This document shows positions 10,943-61,211 of a stretch of DNA of 64,000 nucleotides, in pieces; positions within the stretch are counted from its first letter, which is position 1; each line of letters starts with the position of its first letter. The translations under genes were made by a program, and so were the position numbers. Below the pieces are notes generated by a model. It saw nothing but the letters and a program-made list of their open reading frames with translations. It searched no databases and had not been told where the DNA came from. This stretch comes from Dehalococcoidia bacterium (GTDB taxonomy: Bacteria > Chloroflexota > Dehalococcoidia > Lucifugimonadales > JAGWBF01), in the NCBI GenBank assembly GCA_021295955.1, contig JAGWBJ010000005.1:19276-83275 (forward strand), read 5' to 3'.

Positions 10943-11842
10943 ATGGCAATACGCACCCTTCTATACGCGCCCGGCAACGAGCCGAGGAAGGTGTCCAAGG
11001 TGGGCACCTGCGGAGCCGACGCGGCCATTCTGGACCTGGAGGACGCCGTCGCGGTCGACCAGAAGGTGGCGGCCAGGGACGCTGTCAGGCAGGCCATTCC
11101 CGCCGTCAGGGAAACGGGGACTCAGGTGTACGTCCGGATCAACCCCACCGCCGAGAAGACCGACTTCTCCCTGAACGTGGGCCTCGCCGACATCGAAGAA
11201 GTGCTCTGCGCCGAGCTCGGCGGCCTGGTGGTGCCCAAGGTGGAGTCGGCCGAGGAGATGGACGACGTCGAGCGGGTCCTGGCCGCCCGTGAGAGGGCGC
11301 TGGGGCTGGAGCCGGGCAGCGTGGAGGTCGTCCCCATAATAGAGACGGCCCTGGGACTGTGGCGGGCCTACGAGATCGCCCGCAGCAGCCCGCGCATCAA
11401 GTCCCTCCACTTTGGGGCGGGCGACTTCACCAGGGACGTGAGCATCGACTGGAGCAGGGACGAGGCGGAGCTGGCATACGCCCGCTCCCGCCTGGTGGTA
11501 ATCTCCCGCGCCGCCGGGATCGACCCCCCCACCGACTCGGTGTGGGTCCGCCTGGACGACGAGGATGGGTTCGTGGAGTCCGCCCAACGGGCCAGGCGCA
11601 TGGGGTTCCAGGGCAAGAGCTGCATCCACCCCAGGCAGGTGCCCCTGGCCAACCGGGTCTTCTCCTACGTGTCCCCGGAGGAGCTGGCCCAGGCGAGGAG
11701 AATCGTGGAGGCGTTCGCCCAGGCACAGGCCGGCGGGAGCGCGTCCATCCGGGTGGACGGCCAGTTCGTCGACTATCCACTGGTGGAGAACGCCAGACGC
11801 GTCATCGAGCTCCACGCCGGGGCCCAAGAGGGGGAGGGTTAG
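10943..11842 (+). CDS. HpcH/HpaI aldolase / citrate lyase beta (CitE)-like acyl-CoA lyase (malyl-CoA / citramalyl-CoA lyase type)
   Basis: 299 aa. RTLLYAPGNEPRKV...ADAAILDLEDAVA is the typical CitE-like N-terminus, and GFQGKSCIHPRQV is also present. Confidence 0.85.
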   Translation: MAIRTLLYAPGNEPRKVSKVGTCGADAAILDLEDAVAVDQKVAARDAVRQAIPAVRETGTQVYVRINPTAEKTDFSLNVGLADIEEVLCAELGGLVVPKVESAEEMDDVERVLAARERALGLEPGSVEVVPIIETALGLWRAYEIARSSPRIKSLHFGAGDFTRDVSIDWSRDEAELAYARSRLVVISRAAGIDPPTDSVWVRLDDEDGFVESAQRARRMGFQGKSCIHPRQVPLANRVFSYVSPEELAQARRIVEAFAQAQAGGSASIRVDGQFVDYPLVENARRVIELHAGAQEGEG

Positions 11843-11846
11843 ACAC

Positions 11847-13073
11847 ATGGTCTCGTCTGCCAGGGCTGACAATGTCGCTGACGGTGACGCCTTGAGCGGG
11901 ATTCGCGTGCTGGACCTGGCCACATTCATCGCCGCGCCCTTCTCGGCGACCATGATGGCAGAGTTCGGGGCCGACGTCATCAAGGTGGAGATGCCGGGGC
12001 GCGGCGACCCCTGCCGTCAACTGGGCGAAAAGTACAACGGCGTCGGGCTCATCTGGGCCCAGGAGAACCGGAACAAGCGGGGCATCACCTGCGACCTGAG
12101 ACAGGAGAAGGGACAGGAGATCATCAGGGAGCTGGTCATACGTTCCGACGTCCTGGTGGAGAACTTCAGGCCGGGCACCATGGAACGCTGGAACATGGGA
12201 TACGAGGTGCTCAAGGAGTTGAACCCGGGGCTGGTCATGGTCAGGGTGTCCGCCTACGGCCAGACGGGGCCGTACAGGGAGAAGGCCGGGTTCGGGCGGA
12301 TCGCCCAGGCCTTCGGGGGCCTGAGCTACCTGGCCGGTTATCCCGACCGCCCCCCCGTGAACCCGGGGTCGGCCACCATCGCCGACTATGCGGCGGGGCT
12401 CTTCGGCTCCTTCTCCATCATGGTTGCCCTGGAGCACCGGCGCCGGACGGGGGAGGGCCAGTGCATCGACATCTCCCTGTACGAGAGCATATTCCGGCTC
12501 CTGGACAACCTGGCCTCGGCCTACGACAAGCTCGGGTTCGTCCGTGAGCGGCAGGGCACCGCCACAGCCCACGCCGTGCCCCACAACCACTACCCCACCA
12601 GGGACGGGAAGTGGGTCGCAATCGCGTGCACCAGCGACCGGATCTTCCAACGGCTGACCAAGGCAATGAAACGGGACGACCTGGGCTCGGACCCCCGTTA
12701 CACCACCAGCGCGGGCCGGGTGGAGCACCGCGACGAGCTGGACGGCGTCGTATCGGCGTGGACCCAGACCTACGACATGACGGATCTGATACACCTCCTG
12801 GACTCGGAGGAGGTCCCCGTTGGTGCGATCAACAGCATAGCCGACATCTTCGGGGACCCCCAGTTCGCCGCCAGGGGGTCTATGGTCGAGGTCGACGACC
12901 CCATCGTGGGCAAGCTCAAGATGCCGGCCATCGTGCCAAGGATGAGCAGCGGCCTGGGCCGGGTGAAGCACCTTGCGCCTTCCCTGGGCCAGCACAACGA
13001 CGACATATACGCCGGTCTCCTGGGGTTTAGCCCCGAAAAGCTGGCCACCCTGAAAGGCGAAGGCGTCGTCTAG
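11847..13073 (+). CDS. family III CoA-transferase (CaiB/BaiF)
   Basis: From the ATG at 11847: ...LSGIRVLDLATFIAAPFSATMMAEFGADVIKVE..GRGDP; also ENFRPGTMERW. The upstream part of the track ORF (11565-11846) overlaps the CitE-like gene in another frame. Confidence 0.9.
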   Translation: MVSSARADNVADGDALSGIRVLDLATFIAAPFSATMMAEFGADVIKVEMPGRGDPCRQLGEKYNGVGLIWAQENRNKRGITCDLRQEKGQEIIRELVIRSDVLVENFRPGTMERWNMGYEVLKELNPGLVMVRVSAYGQTGPYREKAGFGRIAQAFGGLSYLAGYPDRPPVNPGSATIADYAAGLFGSFSIMVALEHRRRTGEGQCIDISLYESIFRLLDNLASAYDKLGFVRERQGTATAHAVPHNHYPTRDGKWVAIACTSDRIFQRLTKAMKRDDLGSDPRYTTSAGRVEHRDELDGVVSAWTQTYDMTDLIHLLDSEEVPVGAINSIADIFGDPQFAARGSMVEVDDPIVGKLKMPAIVPRMSSGLGRVKHLAPSLGQHNDDIYAGLLGFSPEKLATLKGEGVV

Positions 13074-13125
13074 GGGCCGATGCCGCCAGCCCACGCCCGG
13101 AGGTTAGGCCGGCCCGGAGGTTAGA

Positions 13126-13839
13126 ATGGAGACCCCTCTCGGAATCGAGTTCCACACCTTCTCCCTGGTCGGCCGGTGCGCCCGTACGGGAATGCTTGGC
13201 GTGGGCATCACCACCAGCGAGATCGCAGTCGGCTCCCGGTGCCCCTTCGTGCGGTCCAAGGTCGGGGCCGTCGCCACCCAGGCCATGACCAACCCCAGGC
13301 TCGGGACCGCGGCCCTGGATCTGCTGGCCGCGGGAGCGCAGGCGGTGGACGTGGTATCCAGGCTGGCGGAGGAGGACTCGCACATCGAGCGGCGGCAGAT
13401 CGGGGTCGTCGATGCCCTGGGCAGGTCCGCCGCCCGGACGGGGGCGCTGATCCACCCCTGGGCGGGCCACCTGACCGGCGACGGCTACGTCGCCATGGGC
13501 AACGGCCTGGTGGGAGAGGGCGTAGTCACCGCGATGGCCGAGGCCTTCCAGGGCTCTGCGGAAGAGGACCTGGAGGAGCGGCTAATGCGGGCGGTGGAGG
13601 CGGGTGAGGAGGCGGGAGGAGAGGCGGCGCCGTTCACCCCCTACCACTCGGCTGCCCTGGTCGTATTCGGCGACGACTCCTTCTCCCGGGTTGACCTGCG
13701 GGTCGACGACCACCCCGAGCCCCTGACGGAGCTCCGGCGGCTGCTGGAGCTTCTGAAGCCCAGGATCGATTACTACGCAATAAGGGCCAGGGACCCGGAC
13801 AGCGCCGTCAGGCCGGGACCGCCCCAGGACGCCAGGTGA
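13126..13839 (+). CDS. DUF1028 family protein (Ntn-hydrolase-like fold)
   Basis: TFSLVGRCARTGMLGVGITTSEIAVGSRCPFVRSKVGAVATQAMTNP matches the characteristic DUF1028 N-terminus. Confidence 0.8.
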   Translation: METPLGIEFHTFSLVGRCARTGMLGVGITTSEIAVGSRCPFVRSKVGAVATQAMTNPRLGTAALDLLAAGAQAVDVVSRLAEEDSHIERRQIGVVDALGRSAARTGALIHPWAGHLTGDGYVAMGNGLVGEGVVTAMAEAFQGSAEEDLEERLMRAVEAGEEAGGEAAPFTPYHSAALVVFGDDSFSRVDLRVDDHPEPLTELRRLLELLKPRIDYYAIRARDPDSAVRPGPPQDAR

Positions 13840-13901
13840 CGGGGCCGGAGAACACTGGGCCCGAAGGTCCAAGGCACGGAAAGCAAAAAGGAGGGACAAT
13901 C

Positions 13902-14804
13902 ATGGTCGAAGTCGGCTCGGGGCCATACAGGTACGACGTGATAGAGGGCTGGGGGGCGCTGCCCGAGGGGATCTCCTTCGGAGTCGTGACGGGAGTGGTC
14001 GTGGACTCCCAGGAGCGGGTCATCGTATGCCAGCAGCAGATGGAGCCCCCGGTGATCGTCTTCGACCGGGAGGGCAACTACCTCACATCCTGGGGCGCAG
14101 GTCTGCTTCCCGAGCCCCACACCCTGTTCATCGACTCCAATGACATCGTCTACGTTCCCGACAGAGCGGCCCACGTGGCGATGAAGTTCACCGTCGAGGG
14201 CGAGCCCCTGATGGAGCTGGGCAACCGGGGCCAAGCCTCGGACACGGGATGCGAGGAGCACGAAGGGCCGGTGCTGAGAGCCGGGGGTCCCTTCAACGTG
14301 CCGACGCGCATGTCCCCGTCTCCCTCGGGGGACATCTACGTCTCCGACGGCTACAGGAACTGCCGGGTCCACCGGTTCTCGCCCGACGGCCAGCTCATCT
14401 CGTCGTGGGGGAAACCGGGCGAGACCGCCCCGGGAGAGATCCGCTCCCCCCACTGCCTCTGGGTCATGCCCGATGGAAAGGTCTACGTCTGCGACCGGCT
14501 GAACAACCGGATACAGATCTTCTCGCAGACCGGGGAGTTCATCGACCAGTGGAAGGGCCTCGACTGGCCCACTGACCTGTTCGTGGACGCCAACGGGGAC
14601 TTCTTCGTGGCCGAGAGGCCCAACCACGAGGCCCAGACCAACTCGATGGTCGTGCGCGACGGCTCGGGGCGCGAGAAGGCCCGCTGGGACACGCCCCGGA
14701 ACCACCAGACGTGGCACGATTCCCACGGCAACATGTTCCTGGTCATGGGGCAGCTCGCCGAGCCCCGGGACAAGGCCATCTACAAGTACGTCAGGAAGAC
14801 GTAG
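13902..14804 (+). CDS. NHL-repeat six-bladed beta-propeller protein, peptidyl-alpha-hydroxyglycine lyase (PAL)-like
   Basis: ATG at 13902 follows AAGGAGGG. Repeated propeller blades are present. VSDGYRNCRVHRF and VCDRLNNRIQIF resemble PAL-type motifs. No signal peptide. Confidence 0.8.
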   Translation: MVEVGSGPYRYDVIEGWGALPEGISFGVVTGVVVDSQERVIVCQQQMEPPVIVFDREGNYLTSWGAGLLPEPHTLFIDSNDIVYVPDRAAHVAMKFTVEGEPLMELGNRGQASDTGCEEHEGPVLRAGGPFNVPTRMSPSPSGDIYVSDGYRNCRVHRFSPDGQLISSWGKPGETAPGEIRSPHCLWVMPDGKVYVCDRLNNRIQIFSQTGEFIDQWKGLDWPTDLFVDANGDFFVAERPNHEAQTNSMVVRDGSGREKARWDTPRNHQTWHDSHGNMFLVMGQLAEPRDKAIYKYVRKT

Positions 14805-14815
14805 ACCGGCGGGGC

Positions 14816-15670
14816 CTACAGTACGCCCAGCTCCTCCAGGAACCTGGTGACCTCGGCGGCGCACTCCTGGGACCGGGCGTAGCCCAGGTCGTAGCTGGGC
14901 CCCTCCAGGGTCACAGTCCGGACGTTGGGGGAGTTGACCAGGGCCTCCCGCTCGTCTTCGGGAAGCAGCGCGTCACGGGTCCCCTCCAGGTAGAGGGTGG
15001 GCACTCCGATGTCCTTCAGCTCGGGGACCATGTCGACCGGCCCCATCCCGCGGTAGAACTCGGCCGCCAGCAGCGGGTCGTTCTGGGCGATCTGGTCGAC
15101 GTACCAGTCGACGTAGCCGGCGGGGGCTTCGCGCATCCGGGGGCGCGCCCGGACCGACACCTGGGCCCATGCCCGCATTCCCCTGGCCAGCATCAGGTCG
15201 ATGCTCCCCTGACCCTGCACCGTCTCCCCAGGCTCGAGGTCTGCGGCGTTCCTGTCCAGCTGAGACCGGCCGGGCCTCAGGGGGATGCTCATTATCACCA
15301 GGGCGTGCAACGCCTGGGGGGCCCTGGTGGCCAGGCTCAGCCCCGTCAACGCTCCCGTGGCCTCACCGATCCAGACGACCTTTCCCGTCTTCAGGTGCTC
15401 GAACAGGGCAAGGGCGTCCAGCAGCCTGGACTCGATGGAGTTCTTGAAGGTCTCGACGGGCACCCTGGAGAGGCCCAGGCCCCGGAGGTCGACGCGGGCG
15501 ACCTTGAGCCGCCGGGAGAGAAGGGGCACCCACTCGTACCACAGGTTGGAGTTCCTGGGATGGCCATGGCAGAGCACCGCCGTGGGCGCGTCCACCCATG
15601 GGTCCGTGAAGTCGTCGTACCGGTAGTAGAGCTGGGCGCCGCCGGGACCTCGATAGCTCTCCACGCTCAT
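14816..15670 (-). CDS. alpha/beta-fold hydrolase family protein (atypical nucleophile elbow)
   Basis: 284 aa with LCHGHPRNSNLWYEWVPLL...DLRGLGLS, typical of the fold. The expected GxSxG position reads GEATG. Confidence 0.75.
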   Translation of the reverse strand: MSVESYRGPGGAQLYYRYDDFTDPWVDAPTAVLCHGHPRNSNLWYEWVPLLSRRLKVARVDLRGLGLSRVPVETFKNSIESRLLDALALFEHLKTGKVVWIGEATGALTGLSLATRAPQALHALVIMSIPLRPGRSQLDRNAADLEPGETVQGQGSIDLMLARGMRAWAQVSVRARPRMREAPAGYVDWYVDQIAQNDPLLAAEFYRGMGPVDMVPELKDIGVPTLYLEGTRDALLPEDEREALVNSPNVRTVTLEGPSYDLGYARSQECAAEVTRFLEELGVL

Positions 15671-15815
15671 GGCGCACCTCCCTTCGTTCGTCGCCCCATA
15701 CTCCCGTCGCGGGCGATACGGGGGTGCGAGAAGTGTAGCACTAGGTACGGATGGGGTTCAACTCATGTATTTGCCAATGCAACCATCCCGCGCCCCGTTC
15801 CATTTCCCCGGTTCT

Positions 15816-16035
15816 CCGGTATACAATTGCCGGGCCGCGGCTACGTGGAGCCCCGGTATACAATCGCCGGGCCGCGGCTACGTGGAGCCCCGGTATACAA
15901 TCGCCGGGCCGCGGCTACGCGGAGCCCCGGTATACGATTGCCGGGCCGCGGCTACGCGGAGCCCCGGTATACAATTGCCGGGCCGCGGCTACGCGGAGCC
16001 CCGGTATACAATCGCCCAGCCGCGGCTACGCGGAG
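15816..16035. repeat. tandem direct repeat, 37-bp unit x 5.9 copies (CCGGTATACAATYGCCGGGCCGCGGCTACGYGGAGCC)
   Basis: Unit starts at 15816, 15853, 15890, 15927, 15964 and 16001, with an exact 37-bp period and 0-3 substitutions per copy. It lies in the divergent intergenic region between 15670 (-) and 16050 (+). Confidence 0.97.
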
Positions 16036-16049
16036 AAGGAGGCAGCCCA

Positions 16050-16607
16050 ATGCCAGCGTCCCACCGGATCAAGATACAGCCCCTGACCGACGAGGCGTTT
16101 CGGCCCTTCGGCGAGGTCCTCAGCCGGAAGGAGTCTGAACCCTTCTTCCAGATGACCGACGGCAGGGTCCAGGGATGGAAAGCGGACTTCTCCTGCGAGG
16201 GTCCGACGGAGGTCGCCTATATGAAGGTGGACTTCCAGTCGTGGGTCGTGGAGGACATGGAGAGACACTTCCAGGTGACCCAGACTTTCATACCCCTGAA
16301 GGGGAAGCCGATGATCATGGTGGTTGCCCGGGCAACCGACCCCGACGACAGGGATGCCGTGCCGCCTCCCCAGGAGTACAGCGCCTTCTACATGGACGGC
16401 GCCCAGGGCGTGATGCTGGGGGTTGGGACGTGGCACGCCTCGGCCCGCCTGGCCCTCTACCCGCCCGACTGCGAGTTCGTCTACCTCTCCTCCAGCAACA
16501 CGACCCAGGACCTGAAGCGGGTCGCAGCGGAGGGAGGCGAGCCCAGGCTCAGCCAGGTGGTGAACTACCGGGAGCGGTTCGGCCAGGCCGTCGAGCCCGT
16601 GTGGTAG
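16050..16607 (+). CDS. ureidoglycolate lyase/hydrolase (AllA-like cupin) family protein
   Basis: ATG at 16050 follows GAAGGAGG. IKIQPLTDEAFRPFGEVL is the typical AllA-family N-terminus. The track ORF (from 15669) reads through the non-coding 37-bp array. Confidence 0.7.
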   Translation: MPASHRIKIQPLTDEAFRPFGEVLSRKESEPFFQMTDGRVQGWKADFSCEGPTEVAYMKVDFQSWVVEDMERHFQVTQTFIPLKGKPMIMVVARATDPDDRDAVPPPQEYSAFYMDGAQGVMLGVGTWHASARLALYPPDCEFVYLSSSNTTQDLKRVAAEGGEPRLSQVVNYRERFGQAVEPVW

Positions 16608-16619
16608 CGGGGCCCGGCG

Positions 16620-17114
16620 CTACTCGAATGCGGGCCTGGAACGGTCCGACAGGTTGACGACGGCGGCGCCCGTGGCCCGCACCACGTCCTCGGGGGCGAT
16701 CATGATCTCGTTGCCCCAGACCCCTGCGCCGACGCCCAGTACGTCCTCCTCCATCAGGATCGCGTCGATGAAGGTGCGGAAGCCCGGGGGCTGCCAGTGG
16801 AACGGTGGAATGGAGCCGATCTCATAGCCGGTGGTCTCCAGGACGGCCTCTGGGGCCGCCAGCCGGATGTTGCGGGAGCCTATGGCCCGTTTCAGATGGC
16901 CCGAGACGGCGTTGCTGCTTGCCCCCAGCATGACCAGCACGCGCTCTCCCGTGTCCGCCTCGAAGATCAGCGTCTTCACCATCTGGCCCTCCCGGCACCC
17001 CAGGGATCGTGCCACGGCGGCGGCGCCCTTCTCGGTGGTGGGTGGAAAAGAGAGCCTGGTGTAGGGGATGGACCGCTCGTCCAGGAATTTATGGGCCGGC
17101 AGGTCGGCGCTCAT
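16620..17114 (-). CDS. YbaK/EbsC-type aminoacyl-tRNA deacylase domain protein
   Basis: 164 aa from the ATG at 17114 (MSADLPAHKFLDERSIPYTRLSF...VKTLIFEAD...YEIGSIPPF). ATGA overlap with the upstream gene's stop. Confidence 0.8.
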   Translation of the reverse strand: MSADLPAHKFLDERSIPYTRLSFPPTTEKGAAAVARSLGCREGQMVKTLIFEADTGERVLVMLGASSNAVSGHLKRAIGSRNIRLAAPEAVLETTGYEIGSIPPFHWQPPGFRTFIDAILMEEDVLGVGAGVWGNEIMIAPEDVVRATGAAVVNLSDRSRPAFE

Positions 17115-18151
17115 CGCACCACGGCGTCCAGCAGACGCGCCAGGGCCTCGTTCTCCCACCTGAGCCGGTTTTCCTGCACCCGGTCGTTGGTCCAAAACCC
17201 GGGGTTGTGCACGACGACCATGTCCAGGCTGGGGCATACCCATATGTGCCTGGCGCCCCCTCCCCACGCGGCGAAGGAGTCCCGCGGCGCGTCGGGCCAC
17301 GCCTTGCCATGGTCGTTCACCCAGAACCCGTGGCCGTACATCCATTTCTCTTCGGACTCGTTGGCCAGGATGTCCGGGTTGGTCACGGTGGCCTGCTTCA
17401 GATAGTCTGACGGGACGACCTGGACCCCGTCCCAATCGCCCCCGCTGAGCCACAGATGGCCCAGGCGGGCCGAGTCGTGCGCGGTGGCCAGTATCTGCAG
17501 CGAGTGGCCAAACACGTTCCTCTTCCTGCCTTCGCCCGGGCCGTACTGGAAGTCGGTGTAGTCGTGGCCCCAAGAGCCCCCTATGGGGTCGCGGAGCTTC
17601 TCCTCCACCAGGCGGGCGCAGCCCGGAAGCCGCCCGGGGTCGCCGCTGTCGTATAGGCCGTAGATGGTCGCCAGCGAGTTGCTGACGATGTTCATGCCGA
17701 AGGTCTGGTAGTGGAACCGCTTGCCGGGCTGCTCTCCGGGTTTCATGTATCCCGAGGTGTTGCAGATTAGCTGGCGAAAGGTTATCTCCCGGTCTTTGCC
17801 GAGGGCCCACCTGCCGGCCTTGGGACCCTGCCCCTCGGCCACGTCCATCATCTCCGGGTAGTAGTCGACCACCGGCGCGTCCAGGCTTGGGACCATCCCC
17901 TCGGACACGGCGATGCCCAGCAGGCAGGAGTAGGCCGACTTGACGGCCGAGGCCTGGGCAAGCTGCCGGGCGGGCTCGACTCCCTCGCTCCACTCTACGG
18001 CAAGATAGCCGTGCCGCGCCACCACGACCCGGAAGGGCTCCCCGAAGGAGCGGGCCCACGCCCCCACGGACTCCAGCTTGGAGGGGTCCAGACCCACGTC
18101 TCCCGGGGAACGGACCTGCCACCGGGCGCCCGGAAACACCCTGTCCATCAC
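17111..18151 (-). CDS. serine hydrolase (class C beta-lactamase / DD-peptidase fold)
   Basis: 346 aa. SxxK motif present (SAVKSAYSCLLG). Beta-lactamase-family architecture. Confidence 0.8.
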   Translation of the reverse strand: MMDRVFPGARWQVRSPGDVGLDPSKLESVGAWARSFGEPFRVVVARHGYLAVEWSEGVEPARQLAQASAVKSAYSCLLGIAVSEGMVPSLDAPVVDYYPEMMDVAEGQGPKAGRWALGKDREITFRQLICNTSGYMKPGEQPGKRFHYQTFGMNIVSNSLATIYGLYDSGDPGRLPGCARLVEEKLRDPIGGSWGHDYTDFQYGPGEGRKRNVFGHSLQILATAHDSARLGHLWLSGGDWDGVQVVPSDYLKQATVTNPDILANESEEKWMYGHGFWVNDHGKAWPDAPRDSFAAWGGGARHIWVCPSLDMVVVHNPGFWTNDRVQENRLRWENEALARLLDAVVR

Positions 18152-18537
18152 AGCCCTTCAGACGGCCCTTGGGTGGAATGGGACCGCAGCTCCTCGCACG
18201 TCTCCTGGTCGGCCTCGGCCAGGTCCGGCTGGTCGTTGAACAGGTACACCACGGAGCGCCAGGCGTAGAACCGGTCGTCCTTGGGGTCTAGCTGGATAGC
18301 CTTGCTCAGGTCGGCTAGGGCCTCCTCGTACCATCCCACCTCGTAGTAGGAGCCGCCGCGGTTGAAGTAGGCCTCGACGAAGGTCGAGTCCAGCTCTATG
18401 GCGCTGGTATAGTCTGAGATGGCCTTGCCGTATATGCCGGTCCGGCTATAGCGGTTGCCCCGCTCGTTGTATCCCCGTGCGTCCTGGGGCTCGGGCTCGC
18501 TCGTGGGGCCCCGTCTCGTTACGCGTTGGTCGGCCAC
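18148..18537 (-). CDS. tetratricopeptide (TPR) repeat protein
   Basis: 129 aa with TPR-like repeats (YNERGNRYSRTGIYGKAISDYTSAIELD, AYFNRGGSYYEVGWYEEALADLSKAIQLDP). 4-nt overlap with the downstream gene. Confidence 0.75.
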   Translation of the reverse strand: MADQRVTRRGPTSEPEPQDARGYNERGNRYSRTGIYGKAISDYTSAIELDSTFVEAYFNRGGSYYEVGWYEEALADLSKAIQLDPKDDRFYAWRSVVYLFNDQPDLAEADQETCEELRSHSTQGPSEGL

Positions 18538-18548
18538 GATGCTACGCC

Positions 18549-18764
18549 CTAGGAGCTGCCGGCCGGAGGGAGGCTATCCACCTCTCTCTGGATGGACTCG
18601 ACGCGCCCGGCCAGCTCCCTGAGCTCCGGTGTGTTGTCCTGGCAGCTAGGACACCAGACCCGGGCCCTGGACGAGAGCATCATGTTCTCCTGTTTCACGG
18701 AGAAAGAGCCGACCTGTTCATTGCAGACGCCGCACTTCTGGACCACGTCGATCTCTCCAGCCAT
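18549..18764 (-). CDS. small zinc-ribbon protein (CxxC...CxxC)
   Basis: 71 aa with CGVC and CPSC pairs 24 residues apart. GGGAGG precedes the ATG. First gene of the minus-strand block 18764-16620. Confidence 0.55.
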   Translation of the reverse strand: MAGEIDVVQKCGVCNEQVGSFSVKQENMMLSSRARVWCPSCQDNTPELRELAGRVESIQREVDSLPPAGSS

Positions 18765-18979
18765 AGACCTCCCTCGTTCCGCCGGACTTCTATGCGCCCC
18801 TCAAGGAGGATTATAGCAACCGGCATCAAGGTTTGCACATGGTCTACCGTCAGACCGGGTGTCCGGCGGCGCCGTGAGAAAGAACGCTGGCGGCGGATGG
18901 CGGGCCGTTGCCGGTCACCGATAGCGGCGGCTTGTAATCTGTAACAGCCATGTACTACTATTGGTGCAGGAGGTGCCCT

Positions 18980-20122
18980 ATGGCAGAGAGCCCCCATCGT
19001 CAGGAGGCGGAGCATCACGACGATTCCGCCCATGATGATCCCTCAGGCCGCGCCCGTGCCGATCACGAAGGGCACGGCCACGACGAGCACGAGGGGCATG
19101 GCCATGCAGAGCACGAGGGGCACGGCCACGACGAGCACGAGGGCCACGGCCACGATGAGCACGAGGGCCACGACGAGCACGGTCACGCAGGGCACGACCA
19201 CGCCCACGACTTACGGGGCGCCAGCCGCCGCAGCCTGATCGTCGCCCTGGTGCTGATTAGCACCTACATGGTGGCGGAGGTGGTCGGCGGCGTCCTGTCA
19301 GGCAGCCTGGCGTTGCTGGCGGACGCCGGGCACATGCTCACCGACGCGGCGGCCATCACCATGGCCCTGGTGGCCATGTGGATTGCCCAGAAAGAGCCCT
19401 CGGTAGAGCGTACTTTCGGGTATCACCGCACCGAGATCCTCGCCGCGCTGGCCAACACCTTCGCCTTGTGGCTCATCGCCGGGTGGATCGTCTGGGAGGC
19501 CTACCACCGGGCCTTCAGGGAAGATGTCGAGGTGGTCGGCTTGCCGGTCCTCCTGGTAGGCATAGGCGGCTTCGTGATAAACGTGATCGCCGCATGGGTA
19601 CTGCACCGCTCCTCGGGGGAGAGCCTCAACGTGGAGGGCGCTTTCCAGCACGTGCTGGCGGACCTGCTGGGGTCCGTGGGCGTCATAATCTCTGCCGTAC
19701 TGATCATCGCATTCGAGTGGCACATAGCGGACCCGATTCTCAGCGTCGTCATCGCGGTCCTCATCGTGTACAACACCCGGAAGCTGATCGTCAACATACT
19801 TAATGTGCTGCTGGAGGGGAGCCCCGAGCGTATCGACGTTTACAAGCTGTGCCACGACATAGAGGAAATGGAAGGAGTTACCCTGATCCACGACGTTCAC
19901 GTCTGGACCATAACCTCAGGCAACGAGGCCTTCACCGCCCACGTGCTGTTGGACCCCGCCTACCAGGGCAACCTGGACGGGCTGATCAAAGGGATGCAAG
20001 ACCTGCTGCACAACGAGTATGGCATCGGCCACGCCACCATACAGGTGGAGCGGTCCGTGGAGGGTTGCACCGAGAACCACCACGTGGGCCACCTGCTGGC
20101 CTACGCCCGCTCTACGGGTTAA
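18980..20122 (+). CDS. cation diffusion facilitator (CDF) metal efflux transporter (CzcD/ZitB-like) with a His-rich N-terminal tail
   Basis: ATG at 18980 lies 6 nt after AGGAGG. CDF core motifs present (LLADAGHMLTDAAA, FGYHRTEILAALAN, HVLADLLGS, HDVHVWT). N-terminal HEGHGHDE octapeptide repeats. Confidence 0.92.
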   Translation: MAESPHRQEAEHHDDSAHDDPSGRARADHEGHGHDEHEGHGHAEHEGHGHDEHEGHGHDEHEGHDEHGHAGHDHAHDLRGASRRSLIVALVLISTYMVAEVVGGVLSGSLALLADAGHMLTDAAAITMALVAMWIAQKEPSVERTFGYHRTEILAALANTFALWLIAGWIVWEAYHRAFREDVEVVGLPVLLVGIGGFVINVIAAWVLHRSSGESLNVEGAFQHVLADLLGSVGVIISAVLIIAFEWHIADPILSVVIAVLIVYNTRKLIVNILNVLLEGSPERIDVYKLCHDIEEMEGVTLIHDVHVWTITSGNEAFTAHVLLDPAYQGNLDGLIKGMQDLLHNEYGIGHATIQVERSVEGCTENHHVGHLLAYARSTG

Positions 20123-36867: not shown

Positions 36868-37572
36868 TTGTACGCGCTGGTACTGGCCGGCGGCCGCGGA
36901 GAGCGGCTGCGCCCCCTGACCGACGACCTGCCCAAGCCTATGGTGCCCCTGCACGAGAGGCCCATCCTGTGGCACCAGGCACGGTGGCTTACGGCCGCGG
37001 GAGTCACCGATATCGTGTTCCTGGCCGGGTATCGCTGGGAGGCCATCCGGCGCTACTTTGGCGATGGAGCCGAGTTCGGCTTCCGCGCCCACTACAGCAT
37101 CGAGGAGACGCCTCTGGGCCGGGGTGGGGCCATACGGATGGGCATGGAGCGGGTGCCCGCGACCGAAACCGAGGTGGTCGTCACCAACGGAGACGTGGTC
37201 ACAAAAGAGGACCTGAGGAGCATCCACCGGCACTTCCTGGAGAGACGCAGGTCCGCGCCCGACCACCAGGCCACCATAATGGTGGTGCCCTTCGTCAGCC
37301 CCTACGGAGTGGTGGAGATGGACGGGAAGGGCGCCGTGACCGGGTTCGGCGAGAAGGCGGAGATGCCCTACTGGATCAACGGGGGAGTATACGTCCTGTC
37401 CCGGGACATCGAGGGCGCCCTTCCCGAGCTGGGCGACCACGAGGACACGACCTTCCCCTCTCTGGCGGCCAGGGGCCGGTTGACCGCGTTCAAGTCCCGG
37501 GCATTCTGGAGGAGCATAGACTCCTTCAAGGACCTGAGAGAGGCCGAAGAGGTGATGGGTGGCGGGGGATAG
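36868..37572 (+). CDS. nucleotidyltransferase (sugar-1-phosphate NTP-transferase family)
   Basis: YALVLAGGRGERLRPLTDDLPKPMVPL is the classic GxGxR NTP-transferase N-terminus. TTG start. The last 14 codons lie in the first copy of the 47-bp repeat. Confidence 0.85.
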   Translation: MYALVLAGGRGERLRPLTDDLPKPMVPLHERPILWHQARWLTAAGVTDIVFLAGYRWEAIRRYFGDGAEFGFRAHYSIEETPLGRGGAIRMGMERVPATETEVVVTNGDVVTKEDLRSIHRHFLERRRSAPDHQATIMVVPFVSPYGVVEMDGKGAVTGFGEKAEMPYWINGGVYVLSRDIEGALPELGDHEDTTFPSLAARGRLTAFKSRAFWRSIDSFKDLREAEEVMGGGG

Positions 37573-37666
37573 GCAAGGACCTGAGAGAGCCCGAGGAGGT
37601 GATGGGCGGCGGGGGATAGGCAAGGACCTGAGAGAGCCCGAAGAGGTGATGGGCGGCGGGGGATAG
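37527..37666. repeat. tandem direct repeat, 47-bp unit x 3 (CAAGGACCTGAGAGAGSCCGARGAGGTGATGGGYGGCGGGGGATAGG)
   Basis: Copies start at 37527, 37574 and 37621. Copy 1 contains the last 14 codons and the TAG stop (37570-37572) of the NTP-transferase gene. Copies 2 and 3 are intergenic. Confidence 0.95.
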
Positions 37667-41811: not shown

Positions 41812-41841
41812 TTGACGAAACATCGATAGCTCGACTACAAT
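41812..41841 (+). promoter_or_regulatory. candidate sigma-70-type promoter upstream of DUF1800 copy 2
   Basis: TTGACG (41812-41817), an 18-nt spacer containing TCGATAG, TACAAT (41836-41841). A further TATAAT lies at 41867-41872. Confidence 0.45.
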
Positions 41842-61182: not shown

Positions 61183-61211
61183 TTGACACCAGGTGGGCCC
61201 GAATCTACAAT
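61183..61211 (+). promoter_or_regulatory. near-consensus sigma-70-type promoter
   Basis: TTGACA (61183-61188), a 17-nt spacer, TACAAT (61206-61211), about 195 nt upstream of the ATG at 61407. Confidence 0.5.

Follow-up and report, generated by a model that had tools for sequence, protein, structure and literature searches.

The DNA stretch of 64 kb analysed here, referred to below as the window (G+C content of 66.8%), carries between two divergently transcribed genes a head-to-tail tandem array that extends on the plus strand from position 15816 to position 16035 and holds 5.9 copies of a 37-bp unit, as determined with Tandem Repeats Finder, by a pattern search and by direct reading. The gene to the right of the array (16050-16607, plus strand) encodes a 185-aa protein of the ureidoglycolate lyase family (Pfam PF04115, Ureidogly_lyase, E = 1.1e-23), and the gene to its left (14816-15670, minus strand) encodes an alpha/beta-hydrolase (Pfam Abhydrolase_1, E = 2.5e-15) that is syntenic in the relatives. 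These assignments agree with the alpha/beta-fold and AllA-like genes, the latter starting at the ATG at 16050, that a preliminary description of this DNA had proposed. The right-hand border of the array is the Shine-Dalgarno sequence of the lyase-family gene, GAAGGAGG (16035-16042, plus strand), which lies 7 nt from the ATG and is kept as (G/T)(G/A)AGGAGG, 7-8 nt from the ATG, in all of the relatives. No tRNA or tmRNA gene was found in the 64-kb window.

Tandem Repeats Finder reported a period of 37, 5.9 copies, 95% matches and no indels, with a score of 384 that was by a wide margin the highest in the window, and it gave CCGGTATACAATCGCCGGGCCGCGGCTACGCGGAGCC as the consensus of the unit. The array consists of five full copies (15816-15852, 15853-15889, 15890-15926, 15927-15963 and 15964-16000) followed by a truncated sixth copy (16001-16035) that runs into GAAGGAGG. 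The pattern search recovered the five full copies within 0-2 mismatches of the consensus and yielded no match in 100 dinucleotide-preserving shuffles. These data confirmed that some six copies of a 37-bp unit stand head to tail at this locus and that the last, truncated one enters the ribosome-binding site, both of which had been claimed beforehand. The array is not a CRISPR array, again as already stated, since the copies abut, the start-to-start spacing equals the unit length and there are no spacers. The long open reading frames that cross the array were likewise correctly taken to be noncoding, because the close homologues of the lyase-family protein are all 185 aa long and share an identical start Met. 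A small open reading frame or leader peptide within the array was also rejected, as no start codon stands at a Shine-Dalgarno distance and the reading frame shifts with each 37-nt copy.

The putative promoter of the divergent hydrolase gene lies beyond the array and exists as a single copy. It was located on the minus strand at 15732-15761, where the sequence TTGAAC (15756-15761) is separated by an 18-nt spacer from TGc-TACACT (15732-15740), an extended -10, and in an alignment of 11 relatives each of the two boxes proved conserved or invariant. Between the two divergent promoters, at 15771-15782, there is an imperfect inverted repeat, TTG(C/T)C-N3-TGCAA (TTGCCAATGCAA in the window), which an intergenic alignment showed to be conserved in the clade of the window and in the related loci L003 and L021. 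This inverted repeat, which also stands outside the array, is a candidate operator of a dimeric regulator for one or both genes.

The identity of the repeated unit became apparent when the locus was compared with 27 further loci of soil Dehalococcoidia obtained through homologues of the downstream protein, three of which come from deposited MAGs titled 'Dehalococcoidia bacterium'; the loci were reached from the protein homologues and the contigs that encode them, plus one genome scan. The conserved gene order (DUF1028, NHL, hydrolase, lyase-family gene, tRNA_edit, beta-lactamase-like, TPR) indicates that these 27 loci are orthologous. In 20 of them the same intergenic region contains exactly one invariant TATACAATTGCC, located 37-91 nt ahead of the ATG, with a short, variable leader and the conserved GAAGGAGG in between, and the TATACAATTGCC sequence is unchanged even where the rest of the intergenic region of the relatives is just 53-81% identical. 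In the window, the first copy of the array carries TATACAATTGCC at 15820-15831 with the hexamer TACAAT at 15822-15827, which we propose as the -10 of the primary promoter, P1, of the lyase-family gene. Hexamers of the type TANAAT occur outside the array nine times in the approximately 11 kb of intergenic DNA of the window versus none in the approximately 53 kb of genic DNA, and two of those in the window have a -35 box 17 nt upstream, TTGACA (at 61206) and TTGACG (at 41836). The restriction of TANAAT to intergenic DNA and its pairing with canonical -35 boxes indicate that TACAAT is a genuine housekeeping-type -10 hexamer and, together with the invariant single box of the relatives, that TATACAATTGCC is the -10 element of the lyase-family gene, a putative assignment based on conservation and consensus.

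In agreement with this assignment, the distance from the left edge of the box to the Shine-Dalgarno sequence in the single-unit relatives L003 and L008 is approximately 34-37 nt, i.e. one unit. At the sequence level, the 37-bp unit is thus a -10 box (TATACAAT) plus the discriminator/start region and a short GC hairpin of the leader, and we hold with considerable confidence that it originated as, and still represents, the native core-promoter/leader module of the lyase-family gene. Among the options put forward in the preliminary description, a stack of -10-like elements fits this picture, as the unit appears to combine a conserved -10 box with leader sequence in view of the 20 loci and of the distribution of TANAAT. 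The same description had pointed to a string shared with the putative amt promoter; TTATACAATAGCCG is indeed present there, at 880-893, but the match mostly reflects the generic -10 hexamer TACAAT and is less a special motif. The amt promoter (864-893) and copy 1 (15799-15831) have in common TCCA(C/T)(A/T) at the -35 position, a 17-nt spacer, TACAAT-N-GCCG and a TA preceding the hexamer, a likeness that may be due to chance among similar promoters or may mark a small promoter subclass, possibly nitrogen-related. Two other kinds of element were considered for the unit and rejected: a sigma-54 promoter, given that the unit has GG-N9-GC and not the required GG-N10-GC and that the relatives are without GG (GTTATAC), and an NtcA- or GntR/HutC-type operator at GTATAC, whose G/C flanks are not conserved in the relatives.

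The regular repeats with their short palindromes CCGG, GTATAC, CAATTG and CCGCGG would also suit an iteron-like array of binding sites on which a regulator is titrated or cooperatively loaded, and the conserved 12-mer exceeds what a -10 hexamer needs. The palindromes are, however, not as uniform as first described: CAATTG is present in only three of the six copies, position 13 being T or C, and GTATAC and CCGG are not conserved in the relatives (GTTATAC, GCTATAC). Moreover, the 20 related loci have a single copy, so that the multicopy arrangement is not conserved, and a period of 37 bp corresponds to 3.5 helical turns and would place successive sites on opposite faces of the DNA. None of the nine neighbouring proteins scanned (10943-20122, leaving out the tRNA_edit protein and a 71-aa open reading frame) matched a DNA-binding family, and TTGYC-N3-TGCAA, the better operator candidate, stands outside the array. 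Plasmid iterons resemble the array in being regularly spaced direct repeats in a noncoding control region, but the array has neither helical phasing nor a replicon context, nor a gene for a cognate binding protein among the nine neighbours scanned. We consequently regard an iteron-like function as very unlikely.

Six copies were found only in the window and in L006, a single contig from another sample (ERZ18545449) that is 99.1% identical to the window at the nucleotide level in the lyase-family gene and 96.3% in the hydrolase gene; as judged by sequence, the two belong to one species. The substitutions of the L006 array differ from those of the window, one of its units has 38 nt, and its units 3-4 are near-identical to units 5-6, i.e. 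a 74-bp higher-order duplication or conversion, all of which points to internal turnover of the array. Both genomes of the species have six copies (n = 2), and no strain-level variation was seen between them. A single copy is present in L002-L004, L008 and L011-L021, and one intact unit plus one degenerate second unit in L007, L009, L010, L027 and L028 (93-95% nucleotide identity). The degenerate unit no longer has the hairpin and carries a deletion of TATA, but its relationship to the 37-bp unit can still be recognised by alignment (z = 6.3 in L007 and 4.9 in L010; 0 of 500 shuffles). This copy-number series (one, one plus a decayed one, and six) fits a minisatellite modulating the expression of the flanking genes, another of the options raised initially. 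Absence from close relatives had been named beforehand as a result that would speak for neutrality; the array is absent at 93-95% nucleotide identity, yet the six copies are kept in the conspecific genome.

The same comparison bears on whether the array could be an assembly artefact, as the preliminary description had cautioned, or a member of a dispersed-repeat or mobile-element family (REP/MITE-like, or the remnant of an att site). One short-read contig, whose gene is identical, begins within the array, as a repeat would lead one to expect, and a related species has an integrase-bearing island exactly at the leader/Shine-Dalgarno border. Nevertheless, two independent assemblies of one species, obtained from different samples, each contain six copies with different internal substitutions, which excludes an assembly artefact. 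As to whether the unit is dispersed, a point also raised at the outset, the pattern search detected no second locus in the 64-kb window, exact-pattern scans of the genome and metagenome contig collections with the unit core TATACRATYGCCGGGCCGCGGCTACG gave zero exact matches, and a protein-guided metagenome scan gave no match. Dispersed repeats such as REP/BIME, MITE and MIRU elements occupy many loci; the search for the array unit covered the 64-kb window, in which it occurs at one locus. Furthermore, the unit is homologous to a single-copy native promoter, and integration and excision do not yield head-to-tail arrays devoid of spacers. An artefactual or mobile origin is in our opinion hardly credible.

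The island mentioned above is an integrative element located directly upstream of the same lyase-family gene in a related Dehalococcoidia species. It was observed at L022 and L023 (1300-1500), L025 (1-3235) and L026 (1-8732), with L021 and L024 representing the empty site, and it encodes a P4-type tyrosine integrase, an AlpA-like HTH protein, a Toprim primase, an AAA_25 helicase and IS21/rve fragments. The island junction (...TTAATTTGG / CGGAGAAGGAGG) coincides with the leader/Shine-Dalgarno border, the point at which the array of the window ends, and an insertion at this border displaces the native promoter. One sample, ERZ25067264, contains both the empty form (28x) and the occupied form (11x). 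An att-site remnant of this island was rejected as the origin of the array, the unit being homologous to the native single-copy promoter.

Duplications in this leader are not restricted to the 37-bp unit. Separate 16-bp tandem duplications in two copies were found in the L002 group (L002, 5953-5985; GCCACAGTTACCCAGA twice) and in L009 (2955-2986; GAGCCCCACCYACGCA twice), and the recurrence of duplications between the -10 box and the Shine-Dalgarno sequence marks the leader as a slippage hot spot across the clade. Among the loci compared, the array of six copies, confined to one species, is the most extreme instance of leader duplication. Elsewhere in the window there is a second recent tandem duplication at 37527-37666 (47 bp, 3.0 copies, 95% identity), whose repeat corresponds to the last approximately 14 codons plus the stop codon of a nucleotidyltransferase-like gene at 36868-37572 (...KDLREAEEVMGGGG*), leaving two extra copies of the gene tail in the 3' intergenic space. 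Imperfect tandem repeats of 24/48/72 bp also occur at 19046-19202, within a cation-diffusion-facilitator protein gene (18950-20122), where they encode an N-terminal stretch rich in His, Glu, Gly and Asp (...HEGHGHDEHEGHGH...); coding repeats of this composition are typical of metal-binding tails.

The six copies of the array are not equivalent with respect to their surroundings. A conserved block, GTTCCATTT (15797-15805, plus strand), occupies the -35 position of copy 1 only, and it can be read as TCCATT with a 17-nt spacer or as TTCCAT with an 18-nt spacer to TACAAT. In most of 11 distinct intergenic regions the spacing between this block (GTTCCATTT or GTTCCCTTT) and TACAAT is fixed and the sequence of the spacer varies, which is the signature of a -35/-10 pair. 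The remaining copies have further hexamers at the same place of the unit (TACAAT in copies 2, 3, 5 and 6, at 15859-15864, 15896-15901, 15970-15975 and 16007-16012, respectively; the degenerate TACGAT in copy 4, at 15933-15938; all on the plus strand), and none of these is preceded by the conserved block. Copies 2-6 show instead CCGCGG at the -35 position and have no TGn extended -10. The downstream copies also differ from the first one immediately after the hexamer: three of the five in the window carry C in place of an otherwise invariant T, as do 6 of the 10 downstream copies when both arrays are considered, and the first copy of each array keeps T13 (TACAATTG), matching every single-copy relative. 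Just two boxes have substitutions, TACGAT in the window and TATGCAAT in L006, both internal, and in the two-unit relatives the box was lost from the second unit, the one without a -35. Although these numbers are small, they suggest that the downstream copies are under relaxed constraint, and copy 1 is most likely the principal working promoter.

The alternative that all six units are active promoters, forming an additive stack selected for a higher expression of the downstream gene, has several observations in its favour. The five exact TACAAT hexamers and the one TACGAT represent over one-third of the TANAAT hexamers in the 64 kb, 10 of the 12 boxes are intact across both arrays, and in M. 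tuberculosis promoter copies in tandem are believed to increase expression. The TCCATT/TTCCAT block is moreover a poor match to TTGACA, and a simple sigma-70 scan of the array region reported no promoter; with such a poor -35 even in copy 1, a -35-independent initiation is plausible, and copy 1 may depend on an activator or be little better than copies 2-6. The stack is made less likely by the CCGCGG sequence and the missing extended -10 of copies 2-6, by the post-hexamer position, at which 6 of 10 downstream copies and neither of the two first copies carry a mutation, and by the loss of the box from the proximal copy of the two-unit relatives. That so many boxes are intact may be due to selection acting on every copy and not to their recent origin, but on the whole we judge a stack of six active promoters to be quite unlikely.

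If copy 1, which alone has the -35-position block and the exact box, is taken as the main promoter, the transcript would include units 2-6, and the structure that this leader could adopt was analysed. Each unit contains a core hairpin, CCGCG-GCTA-CGYGG (15835-15848 in unit 1, plus strand, and then every 37 nt), which is extended by GGG...CCC(C) in units 1-5 and is positioned where a transcript would begin. Two C-to-T substitutions in the stems retain G-U pairs in the plus-strand RNA, and the loops differ in the relatives (GCTA, GCTG and GCGA). Folding of the array RNA, one of the checks suggested beforehand, gave for the plus strand -130.5 kcal/mol with z = -2.6 (3 of 200 shuffles equal or better) and a Shine-Dalgarno sequence predicted to be unpaired, and for the minus strand a fold no better than shuffles (z = +0.26). 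The leaders of eight relatives folded no better than their shuffles (z between -1.8 and +0.7) and revealed no conserved structure. No Rfam family matched the window at the gathering threshold, and a search of 15600-16150 at E <= 1 returned only sub-threshold matches at chance level. A reading of the unit hairpin as an intrinsic terminator was discarded, as there is no U-run and a terminator scan found none in the array. Hence, the structured 5' leader considered in the preliminary description has in its favour the hairpins of the presumably transcribed units 2-6, but the predicted fold is modestly better than shuffles and no structure is conserved in relatives.

Taken together, these results lead us to favour, with an estimated probability of about 0.55, the reading that the array is a lineage-specific six-fold amplification of a promoter/leader module that tunes the expression of the downstream gene, with copy 1 acting as the main promoter. 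The array would have arisen in a duplication-prone leader, either from slipped-strand mispairing or from unequal recombination. Copy 1 would fire as the main promoter, as inferred at the sequence level, and its transcript would carry units 2-6 as approximately 185 extra nt of hairpin-rich 5' leader, in which the five downstream -10 hexamers could act as sigma-dependent pause sites or allow weak initiation independent of a -35. The expression of the downstream gene would then be tuned by copy number, and not switched, in the manner of the promoter tandem repeats of M. tuberculosis, and the change may be upward or downward. That the array has a real effect on expression through this mechanism we consider somewhat short of an even chance.

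The main rival to this reading is that of an effectively neutral minisatellite, i.e. a slippage accident that does not affect expression to any meaningful degree and is destined to drift or decay. It would account for most relatives having only one copy, for the decay of the second unit and the loss of its -10 box in L007, L010, L027 and L028, for the relaxed constraint in the downstream copies and, by a general tendency to duplication, for the recent threefold 47-bp duplication elsewhere in the window. Some 185 nt with five consensus -10 hexamers and five GC hairpins between promoter and Shine-Dalgarno sequence are, however, unlikely to be silent, and two strains with 1-4% divergence in the flanking genes both retain the six copies. 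The presence of six copies in both arrays despite their internal turnover could mean that copy number is under selection, something that near-neutrality would not lead one to expect. Neutrality is for us rather unlikely.

The closest described kind of element to the array as we read it, a promoter/leader amplification with copy 1 as main promoter, is the promoter tandem repeat (PTR), or promoter-associated VNTR, of Mycobacterium tuberculosis. The PTRs of dop (57 bp), lpdA (VNTR3690, 58 bp) and cysG (QUB15, 54-56 bp) lie just upstream of their genes, and their copy number varies between and within strains and has been proposed to alter promoter strength (PMC12817950). Strains engineered with a second copy at lpdA had increased biofilm, a phenotype linked to lpdA expression, and the lpdA and cysG promoters have been described as leaderless (PMC12817950). 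Both the PTRs and the array are noncoding head-to-tail repeats of tens of bp located directly upstream of a gene whose promoter element is part of the unit (in the array, TATACAAT, as predicted from sequence). In both, copy number differs between close relatives, and the repeats, formed by slippage or recombination, are collapsed or broken by short-read assembly. At the sequence level, the array thus matches a PTR in where it lies, in the promoter element that it contains and in the differing copy numbers of its relatives. It differs in its shorter unit of 37 bp, which includes a 5' leader hairpin of a leadered, Shine-Dalgarno-dependent mRNA, and in its host, an uncultured soil Dehalococcoidia of which both conspecific genomes have six copies (n = 2).

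Two other systems show a more partial likeness. The contingency-locus repeats of Neisseria and Haemophilus have units of 1-7 bp and act on the -35/-10 spacing or on how far apart promoters stand. They share with the array a variable copy number in a promoter region and, probably, slipped-strand mispairing, and they alter transcription, as the array may. The array, by contrast, multiplies a whole 37-bp -10/leader module and leaves the spacing of copy 1 unchanged. Sigma-70-dependent promoter-proximal pausing at -10-like elements, as at lambda PR', involves a single element at approximately +1 to +25. If copy 1 fires, the array would likewise place consensus -10 hexamers in a transcribed leader, but it would have five -10-like hexamers at +30 to +180, a parallel drawn from sequence.

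The array is real, and as a promoter minisatellite it is fairly ordinary, since other bacteria are already known to have such elements; it probably modulates expression, though it may be nearly neutral. Most work on promoter tandem repeats has concerned pathogens, and this locus extends the same process to uncultured soil Dehalococcoidia, with an evolutionary series of one copy, one copy plus a decayed one, and six copies that can be seen directly among the relatives. The leader region emerges as a hot spot of slippage as well as of the integration of a mobile island, and the comparison supplies a usable promoter model (TACAAT as -10, TTGACA as -35, 17-nt spacer) for a lineage without genetics. 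For the annotation and assembly of long-read MAGs the array represents a caution, and not a new mechanism. It is also conceivable, if unlikely, that the six-copy state was selected, either as a copy-number-tunable promoter amplifier or as a trap and pause train for RNA polymerase and sigma, to set the expression of the lyase-family gene. In that case, a promoter-tandem-repeat contingency locus would have been recognised for the first time among free-living soil Chloroflexota, and such regulation would extend beyond host-adapted pathogens.
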